This document shows, piece after piece, positions 3,968 to 61,684 of a stretch of 64,000 nt of DNA. A program made the position numbers and the translations under genes. Location: assembly GCA_018819925.1 (NCBI GenBank), contig JAHJPG010000096.1:207-64206 (forward strand). The letters run 5' to 3'. The notes under the pieces are model-generated. The model worked only from the letters and a program-made list of their open reading frames with translations. It was not told where the DNA came from and made no database searches. The stretch comes from Pseudomonadota bacterium (GTDB lineage Bacteria; Desulfobacterota; Desulfarculia; Desulfarculales; Desulfarculaceae). Position 1 is the stretch's first letter. The number at the start of each line of letters is the position of its first letter.

Positions 3968-4006
3968 TCTAATAGGCAATAGATTTCCAAAGGGTGAGGT
4001 GGTGTT

Positions 4007-4621
4007 ATGCCCGCTACGGCGTGGCTGGCCCTGTTGGCGGTTCTGTGTTTCAGCCTTCCGGCGGCGGCCCAAACCGAGATCAAGACCTTTGAGGGCGTGA
4101 AACTCAGCCCTTACCACCGGGACTACGACAACTCCATCCGCGGCCCTCAAAAGGTGGAGAGCGCCTCCTACCGCCTCAAGGTGGACGGCTTGGTGGAAAA
4201 GCCCCTCAGCCTGAGCTACCAGCAGGTGTTGGCCTTGCCTTCGATCCGGGAGGTGGTCAAGATGCCCTGCGTGGAGGGCTGGACCGAGACCCTGCTCTAC
4301 CAGGGGGTGCGCCTGCGCGAGTTGTTGGCTCTGGCGGGGCCCAAGGCCCAGGCCACCTGGGTCATGTTCCACAGCGCCGAAGGCTACTCCACCGGCCTGC
4401 CCCTAAAGCGCCTGCTGGGGGACAAGGTGATGTTGGGGTATAAAATCAATGGCTTGCCCTTGGACGCCGCTCGCGGGTGGCCCTTCCAGTTGGTGGCGCC
4501 GGGCAAGCTGGGCTACAAATGGGCCAAGTGGCTCGTGCGCCTGGAACTCACCGCCGAGCCCCAAAAGGGCTACTGGGAAAAAAGGGGCTATTCCAACACC
4601 GCCGACGCGGCCGGGCGATAG
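4007..4621 (+). CDS. molybdopterin-dependent oxidoreductase domain protein (sulfite oxidase/MsrP-like Mo-binding domain)
   Basis: YRLKVDGLV, MPCVEGW (Mo-ligand Cys), GWPFQLVAPGKLGYKWAKWLVRLE; N-terminal hydrophobic signal ending AAAQ. Confidence 0.85.
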   Translation: MPATAWLALLAVLCFSLPAAAQTEIKTFEGVKLSPYHRDYDNSIRGPQKVESASYRLKVDGLVEKPLSLSYQQVLALPSIREVVKMPCVEGWTETLLYQGVRLRELLALAGPKAQATWVMFHSAEGYSTGLPLKRLLGDKVMLGYKINGLPLDAARGWPFQLVAPGKLGYKWAKWLVRLELTAEPQKGYWEKRGYSNTADAAGR

Positions 4622-4643
4622 GCCTGATATCGCCATAGAGGTT

Positions 4644-4837
4644 GTGCGTCCGGCTGCGCTCGGTCCTCGACGTAGCCCGTCAGCTACGCCTGCGTCCCTC
4701 GCTCGCCCCAGCGCGCCGCTGGGGGCAAAGCGCGTCGAGCAACAGGTTGCTTTCACCCACCTCGACTGCTCCCGGTGAAACTTGTTTGGGAGCCCAGGCC
4801 TTGGGCCGCCTTGTCTGCCGGCGGCTGGCTGTGCCGG
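4644..4837. repeat. degenerate copy of the palindromic MITE-like element core
   Basis: Shares blocks GTGCGTCCGGCTGCGC, CCTCGACGTAGC-loop-GCTACGCC and CCGCCTTGTCTGCCGGCGGCTGGCTGTGCCGG with the 18109 and 61424 elements; lacks their TIRs. Confidence 0.75.
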
Positions 4838-4956
4838 TTTTGCTTCCAAACCTCATTTAATTGTTTTTCCATAAAAATAGCATAGATACTAATGCACCGT
4901 TCGTTGGCTTCCGGCCTTAGGTGGAAAATTATGGTTGGGCCCACCGTTTTTTGCCC

Positions 4957-4984
4957 TTGACAAAAAACGGTCAGGGGCGATACT
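4957..4984 (+). promoter_or_regulatory. sigma70-like promoter of trp leader/trpE operon
   Basis: TTGACA-16bp-GATACT; -35 overlapped by an 11-bp inverted repeat. Confidence 0.6.
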
Positions 4985-5011
4985 GACACCATCAAGGGAG
5001 TTGTATACGAA

Positions 5012-5152
5012 ATGCAAAAAGTCCTAACCAACCCGGCCGACATGAGCGCCCGCCAAATGGCGAAAGGCGCTTTCGCACCGGTGTTTGGTGGCTGGCTTTA
5101 TTGGTGGCGTTCACCCATGACGGTGCGCTCCGCCGGGGAGAAGCCAACCTAG
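5012..5152 (+). CDS. trpL: Trp-rich leader peptide (46 aa, ...GAFAPVFGGWLYWWRSP...)
   Basis: AAGGGAG RBS then ATG at 5012, TAG at 5150-5152; W-L-Y-W-W-R; followed by an intrinsic terminator and trpE. Confidence 0.85.
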   Translation: MQKVLTNPADMSARQMAKGAFAPVFGGWLYWWRSPMTVRSAGEKPT

Positions 5153-5181
5153 GCCTTTAAACTCCCAAGCCAGACAGCGAG

Positions 5182-5214
5182 CCCACCGTCAAAGTGACGG
5201 TGGGTTTTTCTTTT
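5182..5214 (+). terminator. attenuator terminator before trpE
   Basis: CCCACCGTCA-AAG-TGACGGTGGG followed by TTTTTCTTTT; the 5' arm can alternatively pair with TGACGGTG at 5118-5125. Confidence 0.9.
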
Positions 5215-5230
5215 GCCGCGAAGGATAATA

Positions 5231-6619
5231 ATGGGAAGCTTGCAAGCCTACACCAAGGAGCTTTTGGCCGACGCCTACACCCCGGTATCAGCCTATGTGA
5301 AGCTGTGCCAAGGGGAGGGAACCTCCTTCTTGTTCGAGAGCGGGGAGGGAGTGGACAGCGTGGGCCGCTACTCCATCGTGGCCTGGGAGCCCATAAGCTC
5401 CCTGCGCCTGGAGCACGGCCAGACCCTGGTGGAGCACGACGGCCGGGAGCAACAGCGCCCGGAGAACGAGTTTTTCGACGCCGCCCAGGAGGTTGGCGAA
5501 TCCTTGACCGTCCAGGAGCTGCCCCCGCTGCCCTTTGTGGGCTCCTTGATGGGCTACGTGGGCTACGAGGCGGTGCGGCTCATGGAGCGCCTGCCTCCGG
5601 GCCCGGTTCATCACCTGCCCGTGGCTTGGCTTTGCTTCCCGGCTTGCTTCGTGGTGTTCGACCATCTGCACCGCAGGCTGACCCTGGTGGCCCTGGCCCA
5701 GGGGGAGGAGGGGGGCCGGGCCAAGCTGGCCGAGATGGTGGATCGGCTGCACCGCCCCGTGCGCCTGGTGTCGCCTCCGGGCACCTTCGAGGTGGTGCCT
5801 CCTCCCCGGGAGCCTTTCCTGGCGGCGGTGGAGCGGGCCAAGGAATACATCATGGCCGGCGACATCTTTCAGGTGGTGCCATCGGCCCGCTTCACCGGCT
5901 CCACCGACATCGATCCCCTGGCGGTGTACCGTTGGCTGCGGGTCAAGAGCCCCTCGCCCTACATGTTTTTCCTGCGCTTCCCGGGATTTTCCCTGGCCGG
6001 CTCCTCGCCCGAGACCCTGGTGAAGGTCAAGGACGGCATGGTGTACCTGAGGCCCATCGCCGGCACCAAGGGCCGCTCGGCCGACCCGGAAGAAGACCTG
6101 GCCCTGGAGCGGGAGATGATGGATTCGGCCAAGGAGCGGGCCGAGCACATCATGCTGGTGGACTTGGCCCGCAACGACGCCGGCCGGGTGAGCCGCTACG
6201 GCACGGTGCAGGTTTCGCCCTACATGACCGTGGAGCGCTACAGCCACGTGATGCACATCGTCTCCCAGGTGAACGGCCAGGTGGCCCCCGAGGTTTCGGT
6301 GTGGGACGCTTTCAAGGCCTGCTTCCCGGCGGGCACCCTTTCCGGCGCGCCCAAGGTCAGGGCCATGGAGATCATCAACGAGCTGGAGGGAGTGGCCCGG
6401 GGCCCCTACGGCGGGGCGGTGGGTTGCTTTGGGCCGGGGCAATACATGGACACCTGCATCGCCATCCGCATGATCCAGTTCGACCAGGGGCGTTTCACCC
6501 TGCAAGCCGGGGCGGGCATAGTGGCCGACAGCGACCCCCAGATGGAATACGAGGAAATCTGCCACAAGGCCGCGCAGGGCCTGGCCGCCCTGAAGCTGGC
6601 CTCGGAGGGTTTGGCATGA
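5231..6619 (+). CDS. trpE: anthranilate synthase component I
   Basis: LLADAYTPVSAY, FLFESGEG..GRYS, IMAGDIFQVV, SPSPYMF, GSSPETL, PIAGTKGR, KERAEHIMLVDLARND, FPAGTLSGAPKVRAMEII; start taken at ATG 5231 after AAGGA. Confidence 0.96.
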   Translation: MGSLQAYTKELLADAYTPVSAYVKLCQGEGTSFLFESGEGVDSVGRYSIVAWEPISSLRLEHGQTLVEHDGREQQRPENEFFDAAQEVGESLTVQELPPLPFVGSLMGYVGYEAVRLMERLPPGPVHHLPVAWLCFPACFVVFDHLHRRLTLVALAQGEEGGRAKLAEMVDRLHRPVRLVSPPGTFEVVPPPREPFLAAVERAKEYIMAGDIFQVVPSARFTGSTDIDPLAVYRWLRVKSPSPYMFFLRFPGFSLAGSSPETLVKVKDGMVYLRPIAGTKGRSADPEEDLALEREMMDSAKERAEHIMLVDLARNDAGRVSRYGTVQVSPYMTVERYSHVMHIVSQVNGQVAPEVSVWDAFKACFPAGTLSGAPKVRAMEIINELEGVARGPYGGAVGCFGPGQYMDTCIAIRMIQFDQGRFTLQAGAGIVADSDPQMEYEEICHKAAQGLAALKLASEGLA

Positions 6620-7248
6620 TCTTGGTAATCGACAACTACGACTCCTTCACCTATAACATCGTCCAAGCCCTGGGCAGCCTGGGGTGCGAACTAACGGTGT
6701 TGCGCAACGACGCGGTTCAGGTGGAGGCCATAGAGGAGCTGGAACCCGAGGCCATGGTCATATCCCCGGGCCCCGGTCGGCCCGAGGACTCGGGCATAAC
6801 CTGCGCGGCCATCGAGCGCTACGCCGGGAGTTTCCCCATCCTGGGGGTGTGCCTGGGCCATCAGGCCATCGCCCAGGTGTTCGGGGCCCAGGTGGTGCGC
6901 TCAAATAAGCCCATGCACGGCAAGGTGAGCGAGGTGTTCCACGACGGCAAGGGGCTGTTCAAGGGCCTGCGCAACCCCTTCGTGGCCTGCCGCTACCACT
7001 CCCTGGTGGTGCCCGAGGCCAGCGTCAGCGCCCCCCTGATGATATCGGCCTACACCATGGAGGGCGAGGTCATGGGCCTCAGGCACCGGACCTTGCCGGT
7101 GGAGGGGGTGCAGTTCCACCCCGAATCCATCGCCACCGCCCAGGGCATGACCCTGTTCCAGAACTTTTTGCGCCAGCATCTGGGCGAGGCTCCCGTCAAC
7201 GGCCGGTCCGTCCGCGAGCCGGCCCAGGCTTCGCCGCCGCGGGCATAA
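6616..7248 (+). CDS. trpG: anthranilate synthase component II (glutamine amidotransferase)
   Basis: MILVIDNYDSFTYN, ISPGPGRP, ILGVCLGHQ, RYHSL, GVQFHPES; ATGA overlap with trpE stop. Confidence 0.96.
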   Translation: MILVIDNYDSFTYNIVQALGSLGCELTVLRNDAVQVEAIEELEPEAMVISPGPGRPEDSGITCAAIERYAGSFPILGVCLGHQAIAQVFGAQVVRSNKPMHGKVSEVFHDGKGLFKGLRNPFVACRYHSLVVPEASVSAPLMISAYTMEGEVMGLRHRTLPVEGVQFHPESIATAQGMTLFQNFLRQHLGEAPVNGRSVREPAQASPPRA

Positions 7249-7260
7249 AGGAGAAACACC

Positions 7261-8301
7261 ATGGTCATCACCATGCAGCCGGGCTGCCCCAAGGGCGACG
7301 TGGCCCGGGTTATATCGGCCCTGCGCCGGGCCGGCCTGGAACCGCGCATCATCTCCTCGGACCCCCGGGTGGTCCTGGGAGTGGTGGAGGAGATCAGCCC
7401 GGCCGAGGCCGAGCGCCTGACCCAGGATGTGGGTGGCTTGGACGGGGTGGAGGAAATCACCAGTTTCGAGAAATCCTGGAAGCTGGTGTCCAAGAGCTTC
7501 AAGGCCGAAACAACCCAGGTGCAGTTGGGCTCCTTGAGCGTGGGGGGGCCGGAGGTGCTGGCGGCCGCCGGGCCCTGCGCGGTGGAGAGCCGGGAAAACT
7601 TTTTGGAAACCGCCCTCCTGCTGCACCAGGCCGGGGCCGGGGCGCTCCGGGGCGGGGCCTTCAAACCCCGCACCAGCCCATACTCCTTCCGGGGCATGGG
7701 CGAGGAGGGGCTCAAGATCATGGCCGAGGCCAGGGAGATCACCGGCCTGCCCATCATCACCGAGGTGCTCACCGCCTCGGAGGTGGATATGGTGGCCCGC
7801 TACGCCGACGTGTTGCAGATCGGCACCCGCAACATGCAGAACTTCGCCCTGTTGGAGGCGGTGGGCGAAACCGACCGTCCGGTCCTGCTCAAACGGGGCA
7901 TGATGGCCAGCATCAAGGAGCTGCTGCTCTCGGCCGAGTACATCGTGGCCCGGGGCAACTGGCAGGTGATGCTCTGCGAACGGGGCATCCGCACCTTTGA
8001 GACCGAGACCCGCAACACCCTGGACCTCAGCGCGGTGCCGCTACTCAAGCAATACACCCATTTGCCGGTGGTGGTGGACCCCAGCCACGCGGCGGGCAAG
8101 CGCGAATTAGTGCCGGCCCTGGCCCTGGCCGCGGTGGCCGCCGGGGCGGACGGCATCCTGGTGGAGGTGCACCCCCGCCCAGAGGAGGCCCTGAGCGACG
8201 GCCGCCAGAGCCTGAGGCCCGGGCAGTTCACTGACATGATGGCCGGCTTGCGGCGGGTGGCGGCGGCGGTGGGCCGCCAGTTGCGGGAGGCCGGGGCATG
8301 A
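7261..8301 (+). CDS. aroF: DAHP synthase type I-beta with N-terminal ferredoxin-like/ACT regulatory domain
   Basis: [55 protein letters not shown]; about 70-aa N-terminal extension MVITMQPG... Confidence 0.93.
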
Positions 8302-9548
8302 GCATCAAAGGCTCGGTGAACCCGCCGGGGGACAAATCCATCTCCCACCGGGCGGGGCTGTTCTCGCTGTTGGCCACGGGAACCTGCCGGGTGAGCAACT
8401 TCTCACCCTGCGCCGACTGCGCCAGCACCCTGGAGGCGGTGAGCCGCCTGGGGGGGCGGGTGGAGCGCCAAGGCGAAGAAGTGGTGCTGCACGGCGCGGC
8501 CGGCAAGCTCGTCAGCGCGGCGGTGGACTGCGGCAACTCGGGCACCACCATGCGCCTGCTCATGGGCCTGTTGGCCGGGCGGCCGGGGAGCTTCACCCTG
8601 GACGGCGACGCCTCCCTGCGGCGGCGGCCCATGTCCCGGGTGGCCGATCCTCTAATGCGCATGGGGGCCCAGGTGAGCACCACCGACGGCCGCCCGCCGG
8701 TGACCATCGAAGGCGCGGCCTTGAACGGCCAACGCCACGAACTGGCCGTGGCCAGCGCCCAGCTCAAGAGCGCCCTGCTCCTGGCCGGGTTGCAGGCCCA
8801 GGGCGAGACCGTGGTGATCGAGCCCCACCTCAGCCGGGACCACACCGAACGCCTGCTCACGGCCATGGGCGCGGACATCGCCCCGGCCGACGAGGGCGGC
8901 TGGCGGGTGCGGCCCTCGGCTCTGGTCCTCCCCCCCAGCCTGCGGGTGCCGGGCGACGTCTCCGCCGCAGCCTTCATGCTGGTGGGGGCGATAATCACCC
9001 CGGGCAGCGAGGTGACCACCCTGGGGGTGGGGCTCAATCCCGGCCGGGTGGGCCTCATCAGCGTTCTGCAACGCATGGGGGCCAAATTGACAGTGACCGA
9101 GGAAGGCCGCGATCCCGAGCCCTGGGGTAAAGTGAGCGCCGCCTACACCCCGGAGCTGAAGGCCACCGAGGTATTGCCCCAGGAAATTCCCCTGCTGGTG
9201 GACGAGGTGCCCATCCTGGCCCTGGCCGCCACCCAGGCCCAGGGCGTCACCGTGATGCGCTCCATAAACGAGCTGCGCATCAAGGAGTCTGACCGCATCG
9301 CGGCCATAGTCACCCAACTGGGAGCTTTGGGCGCGCGCCTTTGGGAAGAGGGCGAAGACCTTTTTATAGAAGGCCCCGCGCCCTTGAAACCCCAGGGGCG
9401 CTACGATTCCTATGGCGACCACCGCATCGCCATGACCCTGGCCATCGCCGGGGTGCTCTGCGGCCAAACCCTGGAGGTGGCGGACGCTGCCTGCGCCGGG
9501 GTATCCTATCCCGACTTTTACCGCGACCTGGAGGCTCTGCAACAGTGA
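8298..9548 (+). CDS. aroA: 3-phosphoshikimate 1-carboxyvinyltransferase (EPSP synthase)
   Basis: [61 protein letters not shown]. Confidence 0.96.
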
Positions 9549-10363
9549 TTCGTCTGGCGGTGATAGGCGACCAGCGGGTGATCCACTCCTTGTCGCCGCG
9601 CATGCACAACGCGGTGCTCAAAGAGGAGGGCCTGGCGGGCAGCTATGTGGCCATCCCCGTGGAGGCGGACCAGCTGGGCGCGTTTCTGGGAAGCCTGGCC
9701 GGGGGGGGCTTTGCCGGAGTGAACGTGACCGTGCCCCACAAGCAGGCGGTGCTGCCATTTTTGGACCACCTGGGCGAGGAAGCCACTACCTTGGGAGCCG
9801 TGAACACCATCGTGGTCAAGGGTGAACGCCTGGAGGGCGGCAACACCGATTGCCCCGGTTTCGCCCAGGCCTTGACCGAAACCGGCTATGCGGCCTCGGG
9901 GCGTCCCGCCCTGGTGGTGGGCGCGGGCGGGGCTGCCCGTTCGGTGGTGCTGGCCCTGGCCCGGCTGGGGGCCGCGCCCCTGTGGGTGGCCGCCCGGCGT
10001 CCCGCCCAGGCCCGGGCCCTGTGCGCCGAGCTAGGCGGCGAGGCCATAGACATGGAACAGGCCGCCCTGGCCGTGGCCGACGCCCGCTTGCTGGTAAACG
10101 CGGCTGCCGCCTCCAGCCCGAAGGAATCGCCCGAACTGGCCGCCTGGGCAGGATCTCTTAACGCGTCCCGCTTGGAGCAGGTGATGGACATCAACTATGG
10201 ACGCAACGACAACTTCTGGGCCGAACTGGCCCAAGCTCACGATGCCCGCTTTGCCGACGGCCTGGTCATGCTGGCCCATCAGGCGGCCCTGAGCTTCACC
10301 CGCTGGACCGGGCGGCCGGTGGCCGGGGCGCGCTTCCTGGCCGCCCTGGAGGGTGCGGCATGA
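9545..10363 (+). CDS. aroE: shikimate dehydrogenase
   Basis: GTG start overlapping aroA stop; HSLSPRMHN, NVTVPHK, GAVNT, NTD, GAGGAA, DGLVMLAHQA. Confidence 0.93.
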   Translation: MIRLAVIGDQRVIHSLSPRMHNAVLKEEGLAGSYVAIPVEADQLGAFLGSLAGGGFAGVNVTVPHKQAVLPFLDHLGEEATTLGAVNTIVVKGERLEGGNTDCPGFAQALTETGYAASGRPALVVGAGGAARSVVLALARLGAAPLWVAARRPAQARALCAELGGEAIDMEQAALAVADARLLVNAAAASSPKESPELAAWAGSLNASRLEQVMDINYGRNDNFWAELAQAHDARFADGLVMLAHQAALSFTRWTGRPVAGARFLAALEGAA

Positions 10364-11919
10364 GCGGCAACATCTACCTCACCGGCTTCATGGGCGCGGG
10401 CAAGAGCACCGTGGGCCGCCTGCTGGCCCAGGCCCTGGGCCGCCGCCTGGTGAGCCTGGACCAGCGCATCGTCCGCCGTTTGCGCCAGCCCGTCACCGAG
10501 GCCTTCGCCCGCCGGGGCGAGGAGGTTTTTCGCCAAGTCGAGAGCGAGGAGCTGGCTAGAGTGGCCGGGGAAAAGGGCCTGGTGGTGGACCTGGGCGGCG
10601 GAGCGGCGGTCAGCGAGCATAACCGCGAGCTGATGCACGCCAGCGGCGGCATCGTGCACCTGGCCGCCGGCCTGGACACCTGCCGCAAGCGCCTGGGGCC
10701 CCACGAGGTGTCCACCCGCCCCCTGTGGCGGGACAAGAAAGCCGTGGAGCGGCTCTTCAAGGCCCGGCAAGAGGCCTACGCCGATTGCGGCCTCAGGGTG
10801 GAGGTGGATCAGCTTGACGCCGGGCAGGCGGCCCAGGCCGTGGCCGCCGGTTTGTTGGGGGTGGAGGAGTTCACCCTGGAGATGGAGGGCAAGCCCTGCC
10901 TGGTGCATAGCTCCTGGGGAGCCCAGGCGGCCCTGGCCGAGGCCACCGAGGGCCGCCGGGTGGTGCTGCTCACCGACCGCAAGGTGGCCGCCCTGCACGG
11001 GGCCCGCTACCGCGAGGCGCTGGGCGATCATCTGCTGATAACCTTGCCGCCGGGCGAGAACAGCAAGAGCCTCAAAACCGCCGAGAAGGTGTACCAGCAG
11101 ATGCTGGCCGCGCGCATCGAGCGCGGGGACATGCTCCTGGCCCTGGGCGGCGGAGTGATGACCGACCTGGGGGCCTTTGTGGCCGCCACCTACAAGCGGG
11201 GCATGGACTTTCTGCTGGCCTCCACCACCCTGCTGGGCTGCGTGGACGCGGCGGTGGGCGGCAAGGCTGCGGTGAACCTGGGCCCGGCCAAAAACCAGGT
11301 GGGCTGTTTTACTCAGCCGCGCATGGTGCTCCTGGACCTGCAAGCCCTGGCCACCCTGCCCAAGTCCCAGCGGGTGGAGGGCCTGGCCGAGGCCTACAAG
11401 ACCGGCCTGGTGGCCGACCCCGAGCTGGCCCGTTTGTGCCAGCAGGATATGGACCTGTTCTTAAAGGGCGAGGTGCTGGGCCTGGCCCAGGTGGTGCGCC
11501 GCTCGGTGCGGGCCAAGGCCGAAGTGGTGGGCCAGGACTTTCGCGAAGGCGGCCGCAGGGCCATACTTAACTTCGGCCACACCTATGGCCACGCCCTGGA
11601 GGGCTGGCACCGCTACCGCCTGGGTCACGGCCAGGCCGTGGGCGGGGGCATGCTGGTGGCTACGGCCCTATCCGCCGGGCGCGGTATGCTGACGCAGGAG
11701 CAGGCCGAATCGATTTACCGCACGGTCAAGCCCCTGCTGCCCGCTGACCTGGCCTGGGCCCCGGCGGAAGAGGCCTGGGAGATCATGTTGGACGACAAAA
11801 AGAACATCAAGGGCAAGGTGCGTTTCGTGCTTTTGAAGGAAGTGGGCCAGCCGGTGGTGGTGGACGATGTGACCCCCCAGGAACTGGCCCAGGCCCTGGC
11901 CCAGGCGCGAGAGATATAA
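10360..11919 (+). CDS. aroKB: bifunctional shikimate kinase / 3-dehydroquinate synthase
   Basis: N-terminal TGFMGAGKS P-loop, DLGGG, RPL (AroK); C-terminal LGGGVMTDL, TTLLGCVDAAVGGK, LNFGHTYGHALE, HGQAV, DKK (AroB). Confidence 0.93.
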   Translation: MSGNIYLTGFMGAGKSTVGRLLAQALGRRLVSLDQRIVRRLRQPVTEAFARRGEEVFRQVESEELARVAGEKGLVVDLGGGAAVSEHNRELMHASGGIVHLAAGLDTCRKRLGPHEVSTRPLWRDKKAVERLFKARQEAYADCGLRVEVDQLDAGQAAQAVAAGLLGVEEFTLEMEGKPCLVHSSWGAQAALAEATEGRRVVLLTDRKVAALHGARYREALGDHLLITLPPGENSKSLKTAEKVYQQMLAARIERGDMLLALGGGVMTDLGAFVAATYKRGMDFLLASTTLLGCVDAAVGGKAAVNLGPAKNQVGCFTQPRMVLLDLQALATLPKSQRVEGLAEAYKTGLVADPELARLCQQDMDLFLKGEVLGLAQVVRRSVRAKAEVVGQDFREGGRRAILNFGHTYGHALEGWHRYRLGHGQAVGGGMLVATALSAGRGMLTQEQAESIYRTVKPLLPADLAWAPAEEAWEIMLDDKKNIKGKVRFVLLKEVGQPVVVDDVTPQELAQALAQAREI

Positions 11920-11921
11920 TC

Positions 11922-12983
11922 ATGAGCAGCTTCAGCGGCGAAATCCTCAAGGTGGCCACCTTTGGCGAGTCCCACGGCCCGGCCGTGGGGGTGGTGGTGG
12001 AGGGCGCTCCTGCCGGGATCGCCCTGGAGCGCCAGGCCATCCAGGACGAGCTGGACCGCCGCCGCCCGGGAACCACGCCCTTGGCTTCGGCCCGCCAGGA
12101 GGCCGACCAGGTGGAGATACTCTCCGGGGTGGCCGATGGCCGCACCCTGGGCAGCCCCATCGCCTTGCTGGTGCGCAACATTGACGCCCGCTCCAAGGAC
12201 TACTCGGCCCTGGCCGACAAGTTCCGCCCCGGCCACGCCGACTACACCTACTGGCGCAAGTACGGCCTGCCGCCCCAGCCCGGCGGGGGGCGCTCCTCGG
12301 GCCGCGAGACCGTGGGCCGGGTGGCCGCCGGGGCGGTGGCCCGGGCCATCTTGGCGCCTTTGGGCGTGGAGCTTGCGGCCTACACCATTCAGGTGGGGCC
12401 GATTAGGGCTGGGGCCATTGATCCGGCCTTTGCCCGTGAGCATCCCCTGCGCGCCGCAGATCCCAACCAGGCCGAGGCCATGGTGGCCGAGGTCATGGCC
12501 GCCCGCGCCGCCGGCGATTCGGTGGGCGGGGTGGTGGAGTTGGTGATAAACGGAGCGCCAGCCGGTCTGGGCGATCCGGTGTTCGGCAAGCTGGACGCCC
12601 GCCTGGGCGGGGCCATGCTCTCCATCGGCGGGGTCAAGGGGGTGGAGATCGGCGACGGCTTTGCCGCAGCCGCCCGCCGGGGCTCGGCCAACAACGACCA
12701 GATGGACGCGGACGGATTTTTGTCCAACCACTGCGGCGGCATTTTGGGGGGCATCAGCAACGGCATGCCCTTGGTGCTGCGCCTGGCCATCAAGCCCACC
12801 CCCTCCATATCCCAGGTCCAGCGCACCCAAAACCTGGCGGGCGAGGCGGTGGAGATAAGCATCGCCGGGCGGCACGACCCCTGCCTGTGCGGGCGCATCG
12901 CCCCGGTGGCCGAGGCCATGGCCGCCCTGGTGCTGGCCGACGCCTGGCTCATGCAAAAGGCCCAGGCAAGGAGCGAAAAATGA
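11922..12983 (+). CDS. aroC: chorismate synthase
   Basis: TFGESHGPAVG, RRRPG, RPGHAD, GGGRSSGRETVGRVAAGA, GDSVGG, GGILGGISNG, KPTPSI, GRHDPC. Confidence 0.97.
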   Translation: MSSFSGEILKVATFGESHGPAVGVVVEGAPAGIALERQAIQDELDRRRPGTTPLASARQEADQVEILSGVADGRTLGSPIALLVRNIDARSKDYSALADKFRPGHADYTYWRKYGLPPQPGGGRSSGRETVGRVAAGAVARAILAPLGVELAAYTIQVGPIRAGAIDPAFAREHPLRAADPNQAEAMVAEVMAARAAGDSVGGVVELVINGAPAGLGDPVFGKLDARLGGAMLSIGGVKGVEIGDGFAAAARRGSANNDQMDADGFLSNHCGGILGGISNGMPLVLRLAIKPTPSISQVQRTQNLAGEAVEISIAGRHDPCLCGRIAPVAEAMAALVLADAWLMQKAQARSEK

Positions 12984-13420
12984 AGATCCTGCTGCTCAAC
13001 GGACCCAACCTGAACATGCTGGGCCGCCGCGAGTCCGAGCACTACGGCAGCCTGACCCTTGATGAGATCAACCGGCGGATGGGTGAATTGGCCAACGTGC
13101 TGGGCCTGGAGCTGGGCTTTGCCCAATCCAACCACGAGGGCGAGCTGGTGGACATCCTGCAAGGGGCGGCCCCGGAGTACGCCGGGGTGGCGCTCAACGC
13201 CGGGGGCTACACCCACACCAGCGTGGCCATCCGCGATGCGGTGCTCTGCTGCGGGGTGCCGGTGGTGGAGGTGCATCTGAGCAACCCGGCGGCCCGCGAG
13301 GAGTTTCGCCGTTTCTCCTATTTGTCCGGGGCCTGCGCGGGATCAGTGGCCGGTTTCGGTTGGCGCTCCTACGCCTTGGCCCTGCATTGGTTCGCCATGT
13401 TACAAGGCGATGAACAATAG
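12980..13420 (+). CDS. aroQ: type II 3-dehydroquinate dehydratase
   Basis: LLNGPNLNMLGRRE..YG, QSNHEGELVD, NAGGYTHTSVAIRDA, EVHLSN..ARE.FR. Confidence 0.96.
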   Translation: MKILLLNGPNLNMLGRRESEHYGSLTLDEINRRMGELANVLGLELGFAQSNHEGELVDILQGAAPEYAGVALNAGGYTHTSVAIRDAVLCCGVPVVEVHLSNPAAREEFRRFSYLSGACAGSVAGFGWRSYALALHWFAMLQGDEQ

Positions 13421-13450
13421 GGCCGTTGGCGGGGCGTTGTTCTTTTGCCA

Positions 13451-13479
13451 TTGACAAGCCCGGCCCCGAGGGGTTTACT
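13451..13479 (+). promoter_or_regulatory. sigma70-like promoter of Phe/Tyr operon
   Basis: TTGACA-17bp-TTTACT. Confidence 0.6.
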
Positions 13480-13531
13480 TAGCACAACCCAACTCGGTCC
13501 AAAATGGACTGGCAAGGAACCTAAAGTAAAA

Positions 13532-13645
13532 ATGACGGGCAGAGCGGAAATAATGATTGACGGCCAGGGGCGATTTAGCTCCGGGGACGTCTTTTTTTAT
13601 TTTTATTATTTTACCGCCGTCTGCCCAAGGGCTGGGGAGGGTTAA
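13532..13645 (+). CDS. pheL: Phe/Tyr leader peptide (37 aa, ...DVFFYFYYFTAV...)
   Basis: AAGGA upstream of ATG 13532 (alternative ATG 13553); codons TTT TTT TAT TTT TAT TAT TTT at 13592-13612, highly anomalous in a GC3-rich genome; terminator follows. Confidence 0.88.
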   Translation: MTGRAEIMIDGQGRFSSGDVFFYFYYFTAVCPRAGEG

Positions 13646-13672
13646 CGCCGAACTAGGCTAAACCAAGCAACC

Positions 13673-13715
13673 AAGGCCATGGGCAGACTGAGAAAGTCGC
13701 CCATGGCCTTTTTTT
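13673..13715 (+). terminator. attenuator terminator before aroF2-pheA-tyrA
   Basis: AAGGCCATGGGC..GAC-TGAGAAA-GTC..GCCCATGGCCTT + TTTTT; alternative pairing of TGGGCAGAC (13680-88) with GTCTGCCCA (13619-27). Confidence 0.9.
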
Positions 13716-13772
13716 GTTTGGGGCAGGCGGGGCGACCAGAAGTTGGCTCTGGCAATAAGAGGAACGATAAAG

Positions 13773-14675
13773 ATGGCACTGGCAAGTAAAATGGAAAGTA
13801 AAGTGGCAGCGGTCGAGGCGGTGACCGCCGGGGCGGTGGCTCAACGGCTCAAACCCCAGGCGTTGCTGGTAAGCCGCGAGGCCAAATCCGAGGACACCGT
13901 GGTTCACGCCGGGGCGGTGAGCGTGGGCGGCGGCAGTTTTACGGTCATCGCCGGGCCCTGCTCGGTGGAGAACGCCGAGCAGATGCTCTGTACCGCCCAG
14001 TGGGCCAAGCGCTACGGCGCGGCCATTCTCAGGGGCGGGGCTTACAAGCCGCGCACCTCTCCTTACAGCTTCCAGGGGTTGGGCCAGGAAGGCCTGGAGC
14101 TTTTGGCCCAGGCCCGCCGGCTCACCGGCCTGCCGGTGGTCACCGAGGTGATGGACACCAGCGACATAGAGCTGGTGGCCCAATACGCCGACGTGATCCA
14201 GGTGGGGGCACGCAATGTGCAGAACTTCTCCCTGCTGCGCAAGCTGGGCCAGGTGCGCCGTCCCATCCTCATGAAGCGCGGCCTGATGACCACCATCAAG
14301 GAATTCCTCATGGCCGCCGAGTACATCCTGGCTGGGGGCAACGACCAGGTCATCCTGTGCGAGCGAGGCATCCGCACCTTCGAGACGGCCACCCGCAACA
14401 CTCTGGATCTCAGCGCGGTGTGCGTGCTCAAGGAAATGACCCACCTGCCGGTGGTGGTGGACCCCAGCCACGCGGTGGGCAACCGCCGTTACGTCAAGCC
14501 CCTGGCCCGCGCCTCCCTGGCGGTGGGCGCCGACGGCATCATGGTGGAGATGCACTGCACCCCGGAAAAAGCCCTTTGCGACGGCGATCAGTCCCTGACC
14601 CCCAAGGAATTTTCAGCCATGATGGAAGAACTTAAAGCCATGACCGCCCTGCGCCAGGGCTGGTTGGCCTGCTAA
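13773..14675 (+). CDS. aroF: DAHP synthase type I-beta lacking the N-terminal regulatory domain
   Basis: [50 protein letters not shown]; only about 30 aa before the catalytic barrel; start ATG 13773 after AGAGGA. Confidence 0.9.
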
Positions 14676-14687
14676 AGGAACACAGCC

Positions 14688-15821
14688 ATGACTACCATGC
14701 CCAGCCAAGCCATGCCCGAAACCGGCGCCGCGAAGCTTGACAACCCCGCCGCCGAGGGCATCAAGGTGCTTCGCGAAGAGATAGACAGGATCGACAGGGA
14801 GTTGCTGGGGCTGCTCAACCAGCGGGCCCGCCTGGCCTTGAAGATCGGCCGGCGCAAACAGGCCGCCGGAATGCCGGTGTTCGTGCCCGAGCGCGAGAAC
14901 GACTTGTTGGACAAGCTCGCCAAGAGCAATCGCGGCCCCTTGCCCGACGGCTACCTGCGCAACATCTTCCGCGAGGTGGTCTCCGCCTGCCGTTCGGTGC
15001 AGCAGCCCCTACGAGTGGCTTTCCTGGGACCGGAGTTCACCTTTAGCCACCAGGCCGCCTTGCAGCACTTTGGCCATAGCTGCACGCTGGCCCCCCAGAC
15101 CGGCATTGCCGAGGTTTTCCGCGAGGTGGAGGGAGGCCGTTGCCAGGTGGGCCTGGTGCCGGTGGAAAACTCCGGAGAGGGTGCGGTGGGCGCTTCCCTG
15201 GATCAGTTCATGACCACCCCGCTCAAGGTTTGCGGCGAGGTTTTCACCCCCATAAGCCACATGCTCATGTCCCGCGAGGAGGACCTGGACGCCATCGCCA
15301 CGGTCTACTCCCACCCCCAAGCCCTGGCCCAGTGCCGGGCCTGGTTGAGCCGCAATATGCCCCAGGCCCGGGTGGCCGAGGCTCCCAGCACCGCCGCCGC
15401 CGCCCGACTGGCGGCCGATAACGCCGGTTCGGCAGCGGTGGGCGCCGCCGCCGCCGCCGGGCAGCATGGTCTGAAGATTCTGGCCGAGAACATTCAGGAC
15501 TATTCCCACAACACCACCCGTTTCTTGGTGATCGGCACCCAGGATGTGCCCCCTTGCGGCCAGGACAAGACCACCTTGATGTTTTTGACCGCCCACCGCC
15601 CCGGTTCCCTGTACCAGGCACTGGGCGAGTTGGCCGAATTGGGCATAAACCTTAGCCGCATCGAGAGCCGCCCCACCAAGGACCGGCCCTGGGAATACGC
15701 CTTCTTCGTGGACCTGCACGGTCATCGGCAGGATTCGAAGGTGGCCAAGGCCCTGGCCGCCTTGGAGAGTCAGGTGGAGCGCCTAAGGGTGTTGGGATCT
15801 TTTCCCATTGGAGAGATGTAG
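14688..15821 (+). CDS. pheA: chorismate mutase / prephenate dehydratase (P-protein)
   Basis: LREEIDRIDRELLGLLNQR..IGRRK..FVPERE (AroQ CM); FLGPEFTFSHQAA, VPVENSGEG, SHPQALAQC, NTTRF, GINLSRIESRP (PDT+ACT). Confidence 0.96.
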   Translation: MTTMPSQAMPETGAAKLDNPAAEGIKVLREEIDRIDRELLGLLNQRARLALKIGRRKQAAGMPVFVPERENDLLDKLAKSNRGPLPDGYLRNIFREVVSACRSVQQPLRVAFLGPEFTFSHQAALQHFGHSCTLAPQTGIAEVFREVEGGRCQVGLVPVENSGEGAVGASLDQFMTTPLKVCGEVFTPISHMLMSREEDLDAIATVYSHPQALAQCRAWLSRNMPQARVAEAPSTAAAARLAADNAGSAAVGAAAAAGQHGLKILAENIQDYSHNTTRFLVIGTQDVPPCGQDKTTLMFLTAHRPGSLYQALGELAELGINLSRIESRPTKDRPWEYAFFVDLHGHRQDSKVAKALAALESQVERLRVLGSFPIGEM

Positions 15822-15823
15822 CC

Positions 15824-16675
15824 ATGAACTCGGAGGATGATTTTAGAGGCATTGCCTCGCCCGCCCGGCCCGGCTCCGCCGCCGAGCTGACCGTGGGCAT
15901 AATCGGGGCCCAGGGCCGCATGGGCTCGTGGATGCGCCGCCTGCTGGAGCCGGCGGTGGGCCGTCTGCTCACCGCCGACATAAAGGGCGAGCCGGTCACC
16001 CCGGAGTGGGTGGCCGGCTGCCAGGTGATCATCCTGGCCGTGCCGGTGCATGCGGTGGAAGGGGTGATGGAGGCCATCGGCCCCCACACCGACCCCGAGG
16101 GAGTGGTGGTGGATATCTCCTCGCTCAAGCAAATGCCCCTGACCAGCATGCTGGCCCATGCCCGTGGAGAGGTGGTGGGGGCCCATCCCCTGTTCGGCCC
16201 CGGCGCGCCCTCCCTGGAGGGTCAGGTGGTGTTCCTCAGTCAGGGCCGGGGCCGGCGCTGGCTGGCCTGGTTTCGCGGCTTTTTGCGCCAACAGGGAGCC
16301 CGGCCGGTGGTCATGGCCCCAGAGCGCCACGACCGGCTCATGGCCCAGGTGCAGACGCTCAGGCATCTGCTGCTCTACGCCTTTGGCTGGAGCCTGATGC
16401 GCATGGGCTACAGCCCAGAGGCCGACGGCGACATCTCCGGCCCCTGGTTCCGCGAGTTGCTGACCCTTCTGGCCCGCCAGAGCGCCCAACCCGCCGAGCT
16501 CTACGCCGATTTGGCCCTGAACAACCCCGGCGGCCTGGACGCGGCCCGCACCCTGCTGCAAGGCCTGGGCTCCATGGTCTCGGCCCTGGAAGGCAAGGAC
16601 CGGGGGGCCCTGGTGCACACCATGGACGAAGTGGGGGCTTTCATGAAAAACAGCCGAGCCGAACTCTGTGCTTGA
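15824..16675 (+). CDS. tyrA: prephenate dehydrogenase
   Basis: GIIGAQGRMG Rossmann, ILAVP, VDISSLKQ, GAHPLFGP, PERHDRLMAQVQ.L.H; follows pheA. Confidence 0.9.
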   Translation: MNSEDDFRGIASPARPGSAAELTVGIIGAQGRMGSWMRRLLEPAVGRLLTADIKGEPVTPEWVAGCQVIILAVPVHAVEGVMEAIGPHTDPEGVVVDISSLKQMPLTSMLAHARGEVVGAHPLFGPGAPSLEGQVVFLSQGRGRRWLAWFRGFLRQQGARPVVMAPERHDRLMAQVQTLRHLLLYAFGWSLMRMGYSPEADGDISGPWFRELLTLLARQSAQPAELYADLALNNPGGLDAARTLLQGLGSMVSALEGKDRGALVHTMDEVGAFMKNSRAELCA

Positions 16676-16700: not shown

Positions 16701-16731
16701 TTGTATACAGAAATTAAACGGAGATTTTGGG

Positions 16732-16803
16732 ATGTTTAACACTGCGTGGCGCTATTGGTGGCGGAACTGGAATAGGAGTGGTCCACCCGCGCCGGGGCGT
16801 TAG
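16732..16803 (+). CDS. trpL: Trp leader peptide A (MFNTAWRYWWRNWNRSGPPAPGR)
   Basis: ACGGAG RBS, ATG 16732, 4 Trp codons in 23 aa, TAG 16801-03. Confidence 0.9.
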   Translation: MFNTAWRYWWRNWNRSGPPAPGR

Positions 16804-16827
16804 GCACCAAAGCTAAAGCAGGCAATC

Positions 16828-16874
16828 ACCGGGGCCGTGGACCACAAGAGGGTTCACGGCCCCGGTTCTTTTTT
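16828..16874 (+). terminator. attenuator terminator A
   Basis: 16-bp stem ACCGGGGCCGTGGACC / GGTTCACGGCCCCGGT + TCTTTTTT; antiterminator GTGGTCCAC(16778-86):GTGGACCAC(16837-45). Confidence 0.92.
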
Positions 16875-16892
16875 GAGGCAAGGCAGGACGGC

Positions 16893-16976
16893 ATGAACAT
16901 CGAGCGGCATACATTCCAAGGCGTTTATGGGTGGCGGTGGTGGCGTTTCACCAAACGGGAGTCCGTTTTGCCCTAG
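16893..16976 (+). CDS. trpL: Trp leader peptide B (MNIERHTFQGVYGWRWWRFTKRESVLP)
   Basis: CAGGAC upstream, ATG 16893, W-R-W-W-R, TAG 16974-76. Confidence 0.88.
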   Translation: MNIERHTFQGVYGWRWWRFTKRESVLP

Positions 16977-17003
16977 ACCGCCCTCAGGCGCCGGGCCAAG
17001 CAA

Positions 17004-17044
17004 CCGCGGACTCCCAAGTGGGGAGTTCGCGGATTTTGTTTTTT
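17004..17044 (+). terminator. attenuator terminator B
   Basis: 12-bp stem CCGCGGACTCCC / GGGAGTTCGCGG + TTTTGTTTTTT; antiterminator GGGAGTCCG(16957-65):CGGACTCCC(17007-15). Confidence 0.92.
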
Positions 17045-17064
17045 AGAGGTGGGAGAAAGCAGCC

Positions 17065-18111: not shown

Positions 18112-18369
18112 CCCGCATATTTCATGAGGGTTGGGTGACATTCAACAACAAATCCGTATTCAGAGGGTCGTTATGAAAAAAGTATTCACAATATCAATGT
18201 ACAGTTTGTACCCATCACCGGCACAGCCAGCAGCCGGCAGACAAGGCGTCTGGCAAGCGAGGGCCGCAGGCGTAGCTAAAGCTACGTCGAGGCCCGAGCG
18301 CGGCCAGCAACACCGTATGTCGGTGGCTGGCGCAGCCGGACACACGGCTCTCATGAAATATGCGGGCTA
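18109..18369. mobile_element. 261-bp MITE-like element with perfect 20-bp terminal inverted repeats (copy 1)
   Basis: TAGCCCGCATATTTCATGAG (18109-28) / CTCATGAAATATGCGGGCTA (18350-69); colinear second copy at 61424-61684; no transposase. Confidence 0.85.
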
Positions 18370-54602: not shown

Positions 54603-54677
54603 TGGTAGGCCAGAGGGGATTTGAACCCCTGACTTCCACCGTGTGAGGATGGCACTCTCCCGCTGAGTTACTGGCCT
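54603..54677 (-). tRNA. tRNA-Val (anticodon CAC), CCA encoded
   Basis: AGGCCAG acceptor stem, D arm ACTC/GAGT, anticodon arm CCATC-CTCACAC-GGTGG, T arm AGGGG-TTCAAAT-CCCCT, ends ACCA; 75 nt. Confidence 0.96.
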
Positions 54678-60518: not shown

Positions 60519-61433
60519 CTAGCCTCGGGGGTGGTGGCGGCGATGCACCTGCACCAGCCGCTGGCGGGTGACGTGGGTGTAGACCTGGGTGGTGCCGATG
60601 TCGCTGTGCCCCAGCATGAGCTGCACGCTCCTGAGGTCGGCCCCGCCCTCCAAAAGATGGGTGGCGAAGGTGTGGCGCAGGGTGTGGGGGGTGACCGGCC
60701 CGTTTATGCCCGCCTTTTGCAGATATTTGTGGATGATTTTCCAAAGACCCATGCGGCTCAGGGAGTCGCCCCGGTTGTTCAGAAAAACCTCCTCGCGCCG
60801 CTTGCCCTTGAGCAGGCGGCTCCGGGGGCCTTCCAGATAGGCGGTCAGGACCTTGATGGCGGTTTCATGCACCGGCACCAGGCGCTGTTTGTCGCCTTTG
60901 CCATGCACCAAGAGGCAACCCACCTGGAACTGCACGTCGCCCACTCCCAGGCTGATGACCTCGCTCACCCGAAGCCCGGCGGCGTACATCAGCTCCAAAA
61001 TGGTCCGGTCCCTTTGCCCCAGATCGGTCAGTGGGTCCGGAGCGTCCAAGAGGCGTTCCACCTCGTCGCGGCTGAGGAAATAGGGCAGGCCGCCGGGCAG
61101 GCGGGGACCCACCAGGCCGGCCAGGGGGTCGGCGCCCAACTCGCCCCGGCGCAGCAGCCAGGCCACCAGGCCCCGGGCGGCGGACAGGCGCCGGGCCCGG
61201 GTGCGGGGCGAGAGCCCATTTTGCGCCGCCCGGGCCAAAAAGGCCACCATGTGCACCGATTCCACCTGTTCCCAGCCAGCCACCCCCTCCTTGAGCAAGA
61301 AGCCGGTGAGGTCGGCCAGGTCCTCGGCATAGGAGGCCACCGAGTTGGCGGCCAGGCCCCGCTCGGCGGCCAGGTGGGCCAGATAGCTGTCCACCGCCTG
61401 GTGCAAGGCCGGGGCCTGGGGATCAGCCCGCAT
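60519..61433 (-). CDS. xerD: site-specific tyrosine recombinase XerD (alternative start TTG 61406)
   Basis: ERGLA.NS..SY..DL, RDR.ILELMYAAGLRVSE, GKGDKQRLVP, PHTLRHTFATHLL.GGADLRSVQ.MLGH.DI.TTQ.YTHV. Confidence 0.95.
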   Translation of the reverse strand: MRADPQAPALHQAVDSYLAHLAAERGLAANSVASYAEDLADLTGFLLKEGVAGWEQVESVHMVAFLARAAQNGLSPRTRARRLSAARGLVAWLLRRGELGADPLAGLVGPRLPGGLPYFLSRDEVERLLDAPDPLTDLGQRDRTILELMYAAGLRVSEVISLGVGDVQFQVGCLLVHGKGDKQRLVPVHETAIKVLTAYLEGPRSRLLKGKRREEVFLNNRGDSLSRMGLWKIIHKYLQKAGINGPVTPHTLRHTFATHLLEGGADLRSVQLMLGHSDIGTTQVYTHVTRQRLVQVHRRHHPRG

Positions 61434-61684
61434 ATTTCATGAAGGCCGTGTGTCCGGCTGCGCCAGCCACCGGCATATGGTGTTGCCGGCTGCGCCCGGG
61501 CCTCGACGTAGCTATGGCTACGCCATCAGCCCTCGCTTGCCGGCCGCCTTGTCTGCCGGCGGCTGGCTGTGCCGGCGATGGGTACAAACTGTACCTCGAT
61601 AATGCGAACACTTGCTTCATAATGGCCCCATGAATACTGATCCGTTGCTAATTGCCACCCATCCCTCATGAAATATGCGGGCTA
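61424..61684. mobile_element. 261-bp MITE-like element (copy 2, inverted relative to copy 1)
   Basis: CAGCCCGCATATTTCATGAA (61424-43) / CTCATGAAATATGCGGGCTA (61665-84); colinear with copy 1, about 86% identical by manual alignment. Confidence 0.85.

Follow-up and report, generated by a model that had tools for sequence, protein, structure and literature searches.

The trp leader of Escherichia coli (trpL; Rfam family RF00513) has a short open reading frame (ORF) with tandem Trp codons followed by an Arg codon and a terminator just before trpE, and its RNA is divided into four segments that form mutually exclusive 1:2, 2:3 and 3:4 pairings, with segment 1 covered by the stalled ribosome. Two other E. 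coli leaders, those of ilvGMEDA (Leu/Val/Ile) and thr (Thr/Ile), are multivalent, and shortage of any end-product opens the operon. In Corynebacterium glutamicum a leader-peptide attenuator with Phe-Tyr-Phe codons, aroR, precedes the aroF operon, which encodes 3-deoxy-D-arabino-heptulosonate 7-phosphate (DAHP) synthase; in the account of aroR given in PMC11802643 (citing Neshat 2014) it is responsive to Phe and not to Tyr. The Bacillus subtilis aro supraoperon, aroFBH-trpEDCFBA-hisC-tyrA-aroE, is regulated through TRAP (trp RNA-binding attenuation protein) (PMC3064811), and Desulfovibrio vulgaris has an aromatic supraoperon with a predicted attenuator (PMC1173090). Here we describe a leader upstream of trpE in 64,000 nt of DNA from a member of the Desulfarculaceae (Pseudomonadota bacterium, assembly GCA_018819925.1, contig JAHJPG010000096.1, positions 207 to 64,206 of the forward strand), a stretch that we refer to as the window. 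The element, at 4957–5214 on the + strand, is probably a ribosome-mediated, translation-read Trp attenuator that governs the operon trpE..aroQ, a reading to which we give a probability of roughly 0.8.

The original prediction of this attenuator called it unannotated, and a search of the whole window against Rfam at the gathering threshold returns only a tRNA gene (54606–54677, − strand). The trpE leader scores 19.7 bits against RF00513 (Trp_leader), compared with a gathering cutoff of 41 (E = 0.29). Weak matches to ctRNA_p42d, suhB and Qrr were rejected, as they cover the terminator hairpin only. No T-box match was found at E ≤10, and no array of (G/U)AG triplets, of which TRAP uses 9–11 repeats, was seen in the leader. 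A literature search gave no paper on such leaders in Desulfarculaceae and none that pairs 'Desulfarculus' with 'attenuator'; Rodionov et al. 2004 (PMC545781), considered as a source on delta-proteobacterial Trp attenuators, was dropped, the word 'tryptophan' being absent from that paper.

Layout and pairing of the trpE leader

The top-scoring promoter-like site within 4000–14000 is TTGACA-16 nt-GATACT at 4957–4984 (+ strand; 10 of 12 matches), with a transcript start predicted at ∼4990–4992, and TTGACA is conserved at the same distance in relatives. A Shine-Dalgarno sequence, GGGAG (4996–5000, + strand, read from the sequence), stands 11 nt upstream of the ATG of the leader ORF, and GGGAG or GGAG followed by TTGTATAC(G/A)AAATG is conserved genus-wide. 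The ORF (5012–5152, + strand) consists of 46 codons and a TAG stop (5150–5152), and its product is MQKVLTNPADMSARQMAKGAFAPVFGGWLYWWRSPMTVRSAGEKPT. The control codons F21 (5072), F25 (5084), W28 (5093), Y30 (5099), W31 (5102) and W32 (5105) fall within 12 codons (21–32), and the peptide has no aromatic residue elsewhere. A cluster of control codons is thus present, and its WW or WWW is conserved in relatives. This short ORF and its ribosome-binding site stand downstream of the promoter and ahead of the first structural gene, with an intrinsic terminator separating the ORF from that gene. The predicted 46-residue leader, with two Phe codons (F21, F25) and one Tyr codon (Y30) before the final Trp codons, is read directly from the sequence, although the peptide does not end at WWR as had been claimed: WWR is residues 31–33, and 13 further codons follow before the TAG.

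The leader RNA can be divided into segments with competing partners. Segment 1 (5090–5116, + strand) is the 5′ strand of the anti-antiterminator and holds the Trp and Tyr codons. The core of segment 2 is the antiterminator arm UGACGGUGCGCUC (5118–5130, + strand), which forms 12 of 13 pairs with segment 3 (5179–5191, + strand; GAGCCCACCGUCA). Segment 3 is also the 5′ arm of the terminator (5179–5214, + strand), which has a 13-bp stem (5179–5207) with an AAG loop, followed by TTTTTCTTTT; its stem is the top candidate in 10 kb in a terminator scan, and trpE begins 17 nt downstream of it. The octamers first proposed as partners, TGACGGTG at 5118–5125 and CACCGTCA at 5184–5191, are present as described, the former exactly 10 nt past the WW codons (5102–5107), and are part of this longer complementarity. 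The antiterminator thus shares the terminator 5′ arm and begins 10 nt past W32. Its duplex is predicted at −16.5 kcal/mol, compared with −9.2±2.1 in shuffles, and the whole-leader fold has z = −4.7; because of these values, and because the architecture recurs in ∼25 related genomes, the arrangement is more than would be expected by chance. In the minimum free energy (MFE) fold of 5085–5152 (−29.7 kcal/mol), 5090–5115 is paired with 5122–5149.

The leading edge of a ribosome lies at +15 or +16 from its P-site codon in toeprints, and by this rule a ribosome with W32 in the A site has its edge at ∼5117, one base short of the antiterminator. We folded the transcript cut before the terminator 3′ arm, with the ribosome footprint masked, in an equilibrium model; this truncated form was used because folding of the full transcript always yields the terminator under any mask and is uninformative. 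Without a ribosome none of the 13 antiterminator base pairs form, and the same is true with a ribosome at the stop codon, whereas 12 of 13 form with a ribosome stalled at W32 or at Y30. When every codon was tried as the stall site, the continuous antitermination-competent window was codons 21–33, which includes all six aromatic codons, with isolated positives at codons 19 and 46.

From these parts we infer the dynamic steps, the termination in vivo and the amino-acid responses as follows. Transcription would begin near 4990 and a ribosome would translate the 46-codon leader. Under shortage of charged tRNA-Trp it would stall as W31 or W32 occupies the A site, its edge at ∼5117, masking segment 1 (5090–5116) and leaving 5118–5130 free to pair with the emerging 5179–5191. 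The terminator hairpin would thereby be blocked, and RNA polymerase would continue into trpE-trpG-DAHP synthase-aroA-aroE-aroKB-aroC-aroQ. With plentiful aromatic amino acids the ribosome would reach the stop codon at 5150, segments 1 and 2 would re-pair behind it, the terminator would form and transcription would end at ∼5210–5214. Trp shortage, and more weakly Tyr or Phe shortage, would open the switch.

A strong hairpin is also present inside the leader ORF at 5043–5072, 5′ of the control codons (GAGCGCCCGCC AAAU GGCG AAA GGCGCUUUC in the MFE fold). It could act as a pause hairpin for RNA polymerase, keeping transcription in step with translation of the leader.

Conservation and covariation among relatives

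Forty relatives were searched with TrpE and the DNA upstream was then inspected; the genome of the window is numbered G000, and other G numbers are genomes of relatives. The closest public TrpE loci are 77–89% identical and belong to metagenome-assembled genomes of Desulfarculaceae, Deltaproteobacteria or Proteobacteria. An orthologous leader precedes trpE in ∼25 related genomes, in nearly every genome of the family of the window and in four sister families, and these share an arrangement of TTGACA, leader ORF, GRCGGTG motif, CCCACCGYC...GRCGGTGGG hairpin and T run. The leader ORF in these ∼25 genomes has the consensus (F/Y)(F/Y)WW(W)R(S/T)P..(T/A)V with a stop codon at a fixed distance. Spacing is rigid: for most members of families f1 and f2 the antiterminator core stands 16 nt past the last Trp codon, and the stop codon 29 nt past the core. 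The segment that best complements the terminator 5′ arm is found 9–16 nt beyond the last Trp codon in ∼22 genomes, and in ∼22 relatives the predicted free energy of the antiterminator is −12.5 to −21 kcal/mol, compared with about −9±2 for shuffles.

In an alignment of 25 leader sequences the terminator is 92% paired and seven of its pairs are changed on both sides, a number attained by none of 500 shuffles. For the antiterminator the paired fraction is 83%, and its column pair 65/146 is AU in 12 sequences, GC in 10 and GU in three. The A/G of the antiterminator in this pair covaries with a U/C of the terminator 5′ arm, and this U/C is itself linked by covariation to the 3′ arm (UA 13, CG 10). 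A single nucleotide that holds two alternative partners in this way is the signature of a switch, as read from the alignment. The sequence-level hallmarks of the Trp attenuator that had been proposed are thus present and, apart from part of the 1:2 pairing (see below), conserved, and its antiterminator covaries with its terminator.

These data also bear on whether the ORF is translated at all, the alternative being that the short ORF stays untranslated and the hairpin serves as an ordinary terminator, or as an element controlled by a protein or RNA ligand (TRAP-like, T-box or riboswitch). The Shine-Dalgarno spacing of 11 nt is rather long, and leader translation is predicted here from sequence. 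We nevertheless consider this alternative very improbable. Relatives keep the ORF and its frame, the WW codons, the position of the stop and the Shine-Dalgarno sequence while the N-terminal peptide drifts, and no gene lies between promoter and terminator that the terminator could serve. No T-box or riboswitch match appears at E ≤10, nor does one reach the gathering thresholds anywhere in the window. Moreover, the control codons on this scaffold are W, F/Y or mixed in keeping with the genes downstream (see below), which only a mechanism read by translation explains.

Three observations weigh against the Trp attenuator as we have drawn it, all of them concerning its off state. The inner helices of the 1:2 structure are 73–84% paired across relatives, but the outer 1:2 helix tested on fixed columns is 65.6% paired, compared with 63.2% in shuffles, and is not significantly conserved; a long 1:2 helix was consequently rejected as a conserved feature and is kept for the window only, where sequestration is clear (−29.7 kcal/mol, and 0 of 13 antiterminator pairs without a ribosome). 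About half of the relatives show the antiterminator at equilibrium in the truncated transcript without any stalled ribosome; their off state is not the MFE structure, and kinetics must therefore contribute to it. Finally, the stop codon lies 20 nt past the antiterminator, and a ribosome at the stop leaves segment 2 unmasked, unlike in E. coli trpL. Because the ORF thus extends across the antiterminator and past it, the off state most likely rests in our model on the 1:2 helix re-forming behind the ribosome, perhaps aided by a ribosome in the 48-nt loop.

The trp-shikimate operon and proposed co-sensing of Phe and Tyr

The operon behind the leader has eight genes (5231..13420, all on the + strand), identified with Pfam and NCBIfam: trpE (5231–6619), trpG (6616–7248), a class I-beta DAHP synthase gene with an N-terminal ferredoxin-like domain (aroF, 7261–8301), aroA (8298–9548), aroE (to 10363), an aroK-aroB fusion (10360–11919), aroC (11922–12983) and aroQ (to 13420). 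This is the order originally predicted, with neighbours overlapping by 4 nt or lying ≤12 nt apart. Gene order is kept within the family, sister families have trpE-DCFBA-trpG-aro, and in these two gene orders trp genes remain joined to aroF1-aroA..aroQ across families. In tblastn searches of the whole assembly, which is 96% complete, no second aroE, aroKB, aroC or aroQ was found; the sole aroA-like match is a paralogue at 30% identity, and there are two further DAHP synthases.

The claim that the common pathway sits under Trp sensing is supported by the tight operon and by the single-copy aroE, aroKB, aroC and aroQ, with the caveat that DAHP synthase is not solely under the trpE leader switch, because two more isozymes have Phe/Tyr attenuators of their own. 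Internal promoters may also lie within coding sequence, and one could suppose that the attenuator in practice governs trpE-trpG alone, with promoters in trpG or later giving constitutive shikimate expression. It would indeed be risky to shut five single-copy shikimate genes when Trp is plentiful, the gap between trpG and the DAHP synthase gene is 100–158 nt in G011, G012, G039, G024 and G017, and there is a weak promoter-like match inside trpE at 6447–6474. In the window, however, neighbouring genes are spaced at −4 to 12 nt, and their start and stop codons overlap in the manner typical of translational coupling; the larger trpG-aroF1 gaps of the relatives contain no aromatic leader ORF, and the linkage of trp and aro genes is conserved in two gene orders. 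Basal read-through together with the F/Y codons offers another answer to the risk of shut-off, and we regard control of trpE-trpG alone as improbable.

Because F21, F25 and Y30 share the stall-sensitive window with the Trp codons, the leader is probably a multivalent switch, and stalls at Y30, F25 or F21 are predicted by the truncated-transcript scan to equal a Trp-codon stall in effect. In E. coli trpL, stalling at a neighbouring codon likewise relieves termination, as found in arginine-starvation experiments. A multivalent switch fits an operon that carries the sole copies of five shikimate-pathway genes. Taken as a separate claim, sensing of Phe and Tyr appears to us a little more probable than not. 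The opposing view is that the attenuator responds to Trp only and that the Phe/Tyr codons are passengers, kept for U-rich pairing in the anti-antiterminator or simply ancestral, so that Phe or Tyr limitation has no physiological effect; we think this the less probable of the two, albeit a serious contender.

Counts of F+Y in the six codons preceding the WW run bear directly on this choice. Leaders of operons that join trp genes to aroA..aroQ have a mean of 2.76 (n = 21), those of Trp-only operons 0.62 (n = 29), and the remainder of the leaders, taken as background, ∼0.29 (4.9% per codon); two leaders with non-adjacent Trp codons, in G012 (0) and G018 (1), are omitted from the count. This is a nine-fold enrichment over background and a four-fold one over Trp-only leaders. 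The difference between genus means is significant (one-sided Mann-Whitney p = 0.005) in a test that ignores phylogeny, and since the trpE leaders are all orthologous, the enrichment could be a single inherited state. The trp-plus-aro leaders of G012, G031 and G035, which control aro genes, have no F or Y at all before the Trp run, and Trp-only trpD leaders of the genus often carry Tyr or Phe beside WW, reading WRYWW or SFYWWRW. Within the leader of the window there are one Tyr and two Phe codons to three Trp codons, and the UUU/UAU stretch also serves the 1:2 helix, where it pairs with the purine-rich 3′ strand. These exceptions, codon numbers and pairings tell for a Trp-only switch.

Three relatives in which aroA..aroC is split from trpE point the other way. 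In G013, trpE-trpG-aroF1-trpDCFBA has the leader NWWWW, and a separate aroA-aroE-aroKB-aroC-aroQ operon has the leader CFFYFYYW. G028 has trpE-DCFBA-trpG-aroF1 behind GLNWWW and a separate aroA..aroQ behind RFRGYYYYF, and G032 has trpEGDCFBA behind NNWWW and a separate aroF-aroB-aroA-aroC behind GFGFFFYFYFF. Each of the three combines a W-only trpE leader with a separate F/Y leader on the aro operon; three independent lineages have lost F/Y from the trpE leader along with the aro genes. The amino acid is also retained through synonymous change between UAU and UAC, as in TTTTAC of G014 and TACTAC of G004, and the predicted Y30 stall is as effective as that at W32. The F/Y codons in relatives, which the original prediction proposed as a check, thus lend support to co-sensing through the averages (2.76 versus 0.62) and the split operons with their own F/Y leaders, with G012, G031 and G035 as exceptions.

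Reuse of the leader scaffold and comparison with known systems

At least five aromatic attenuators are present in the genome, several of them within a 17-kb aromatic cluster. Between aroQ and the second DAHP synthase gene lies a Phe/Tyr attenuator (13451–13720), with TTGACA at ∼13451 and a leader ORF at 13532–13645 encoding MTGRAEIMIDGQGRFSSGDVFFYFYYFTAVCPRAGEG up to its stop; orthologous leaders occur in nearly all relatives. Its antiterminator GUCUGCCCA (13618–13626) pairs with 13681–13689, and its terminator (∼13676–13720) reads GGCCATGGGC..GCCCATGGCC followed by a T run. The genes behind it are aroF2 (13773–14675), pheA (14688–15821) and tyrA (15824–16675). Assignment of 13773–14675 as a synthase of 3-deoxy-D-manno-octulosonate 8-phosphate was rejected, the NCBIfam score being 450 bits for DAHP synthase and 129 for KdsA. 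Two tandem, complete Trp attenuators (16733–17045) then precede trpD-C-F-B-A: leader A encodes MFNTAWRYWWRNWNRSGPPAPGR (16733–16804; terminator ∼16828–16875) and leader B encodes MNIERHTFQGVYGWRWWRFTKRESVLP (16894–16977; terminator ∼17004–17045), each ORF closed by a stop. The trpD leaders are tandem in many relatives and single in others, and G039 has tandem leaders before trpE. A third DAHP synthase gene lies outside the window at C145:48173–49243 with an F/Y leader region at C145:47926–48125; this leader encodes MNHQRGQFKSQDATAGVLPRSAAFFYFYYYAPATETVSLPGVRKV, ending in AAFFYFYYYAPATETVSLPGVRKV at its stop, and both its antiterminator and its terminator nearly duplicate those of the trpE leader. 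All three DAHP synthase isozymes of the genome are thus behind attenuators of their own.

A covariance model built solely from trpE leaders matches the C145 F/Y leader with 55.7 bits (E = 4e-10), from which it follows that a single scaffold serves with differing sets of control codons. In most relatives the model detects another full-length copy, a second or a third, before a DAHP synthase gene, aroA, trpD or a trpB paralogue, and in these extra copies the codons are F/Y, mixed or W in line with the gene that follows. Weak matches with E of ∼2e-6 or weaker (G000:C51, G010, G012:1289985, G040 and G021) were discarded as gene-end terminators without leader ORFs. Across 201 genomes sampled from the phylum, matches are confined to the class of the window plus a single 40-bit match, L189 (G213:C51:108366–108505), in a different family. 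L189 is a Trp leader, MKNINQENRNFWWCWWWCDPDGCADGIVSG (..NFWWCWWWC..), with five Trp codons, and with its terminator it precedes a DAHP synthase gene followed by trpE; a DAHP synthase gene can thus stand behind a Trp leader outside the class of the window too.

We give an even chance to the broader proposal that in Desulfarculaceae and their sister families, probably throughout the class Desulfarculia, one paralogous scaffold acts as a codon-programmable sensor, in which the leader of the window would be a Trp > Tyr > Phe attenuator. The scaffold would comprise the GRCGGUG antiterminator, the CCCACCGYC terminator arm and the fixed position of the stop codon. Its control codons would be WW(W) where Trp-only genes follow, F/Y runs where the operon is a DAHP synthase or aroA one, and a hybrid F/Y+WW set where trp genes are joined to the single-copy shikimate genes, and they would have been re-written at each operon fusion or split.

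Two further features of the locus were noted. A GTATAC palindrome, a candidate operator, lies between the Shine-Dalgarno sequence and the start codon of the trpE leader (5003–5008, + strand). Boxes of the form (T)GTATAC(A) also occur before trpD leader A (16702–16709), before the aroF3 leader (C145:47891) and ∼400 nt upstream of a trpB paralogue (C125:6474), and in other genera a GTATAC box stands directly 5′ of the −35 of the trpE promoter (TGTATACAAA..TTGACA). The sequence TGTATACA has just six occurrences in the 4.03-Mb assembly, two of them at aromatic leaders. Judged by its placement, the box is possibly the operator of an aromatic-pathway repressor layered on attenuation. The second feature is the 250-nt trpD-trpC spacer (18112–18360), which is a repeat resembling a miniature inverted-repeat transposable element, with >100 blastn matches in the assembly. 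Full-length copies are 77–86% identical; the repeat also occurs at ∼61428–61686 (− strand), and fragments lie at 4652–4707 and 4807–4851, just 5′ of the trpE promoter. The spacer is an insertion in the trpDCFBA operon, because trpD and trpC abut in G003, G009, G008 and G006.

The trpE leader belongs to a class-wide candidate RNA family that is absent from current RNA libraries and is for that reason skipped by annotation pipelines. The aromatic network of this genome appears to be wired by leader-peptide attenuators acting on three DAHP synthase isozymes, the common pathway and the Phe/Tyr and Trp branches, a task performed in E. coli by the repressors TrpR and TyrR. The correspondence of control codons with operon content in fused and split operons is a natural experiment, showing how specificity can evolve by replacement of codons on a fixed scaffold, and such replacement could serve as a design principle.

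Compared with known systems, the mechanism is a familiar one; the leader is predicted to work like the E. coli trp attenuator, and nothing established about attenuation is overturned. With trpL it shares the layout described at the outset, and the three exclusive pairings are predicted for it as well. It differs in length, having 46 codons, 13 of them past the control codons and running through the antiterminator, where trpL has 14, and in the make-up of its sensitive stretch, which holds three Trp codons together with Tyr and Phe codons; behind it lies an operon with the shikimate pathway instead of trpDCBA. Like the ilvGMEDA and thr leaders, it places codons for several end-products of a branched pathway in one leader, although those leaders have many codons per amino acid, whereas here Trp is dominant and the role of Phe and Tyr is deduced from comparison. 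C. glutamicum aroR likewise has mixed aromatic control codons upstream of a DAHP synthase operon, but as it is outlined in that source it has no Trp codons, its RNA is unrelated, and its operon is without trpEG and the complete common pathway. Like the class of the window, D. vulgaris belongs to the sulfate reducers once placed in the Deltaproteobacteria, and its genes for the common pathway, for Phe/Tyr and for Trp are similarly clustered behind a predicted attenuator; that cluster has other gene content and order, an alternative aroA′/aroB′ route and a single predicted attenuator at its head, as against three to four internal ones in the cluster of the window. The B. subtilis supraoperon also sets trp genes among common-pathway genes and uses an internal terminator/antiterminator switch, but there the TRAP protein senses through (G/U)AG repeats, which the leader of the window lacks, its sensor being the translating ribosome. 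What is new here is the RNA family, its placement before trpEG and a complete common pathway, its recurrence with other sets of control codons, and the correspondence between those codons and the operons they precede.

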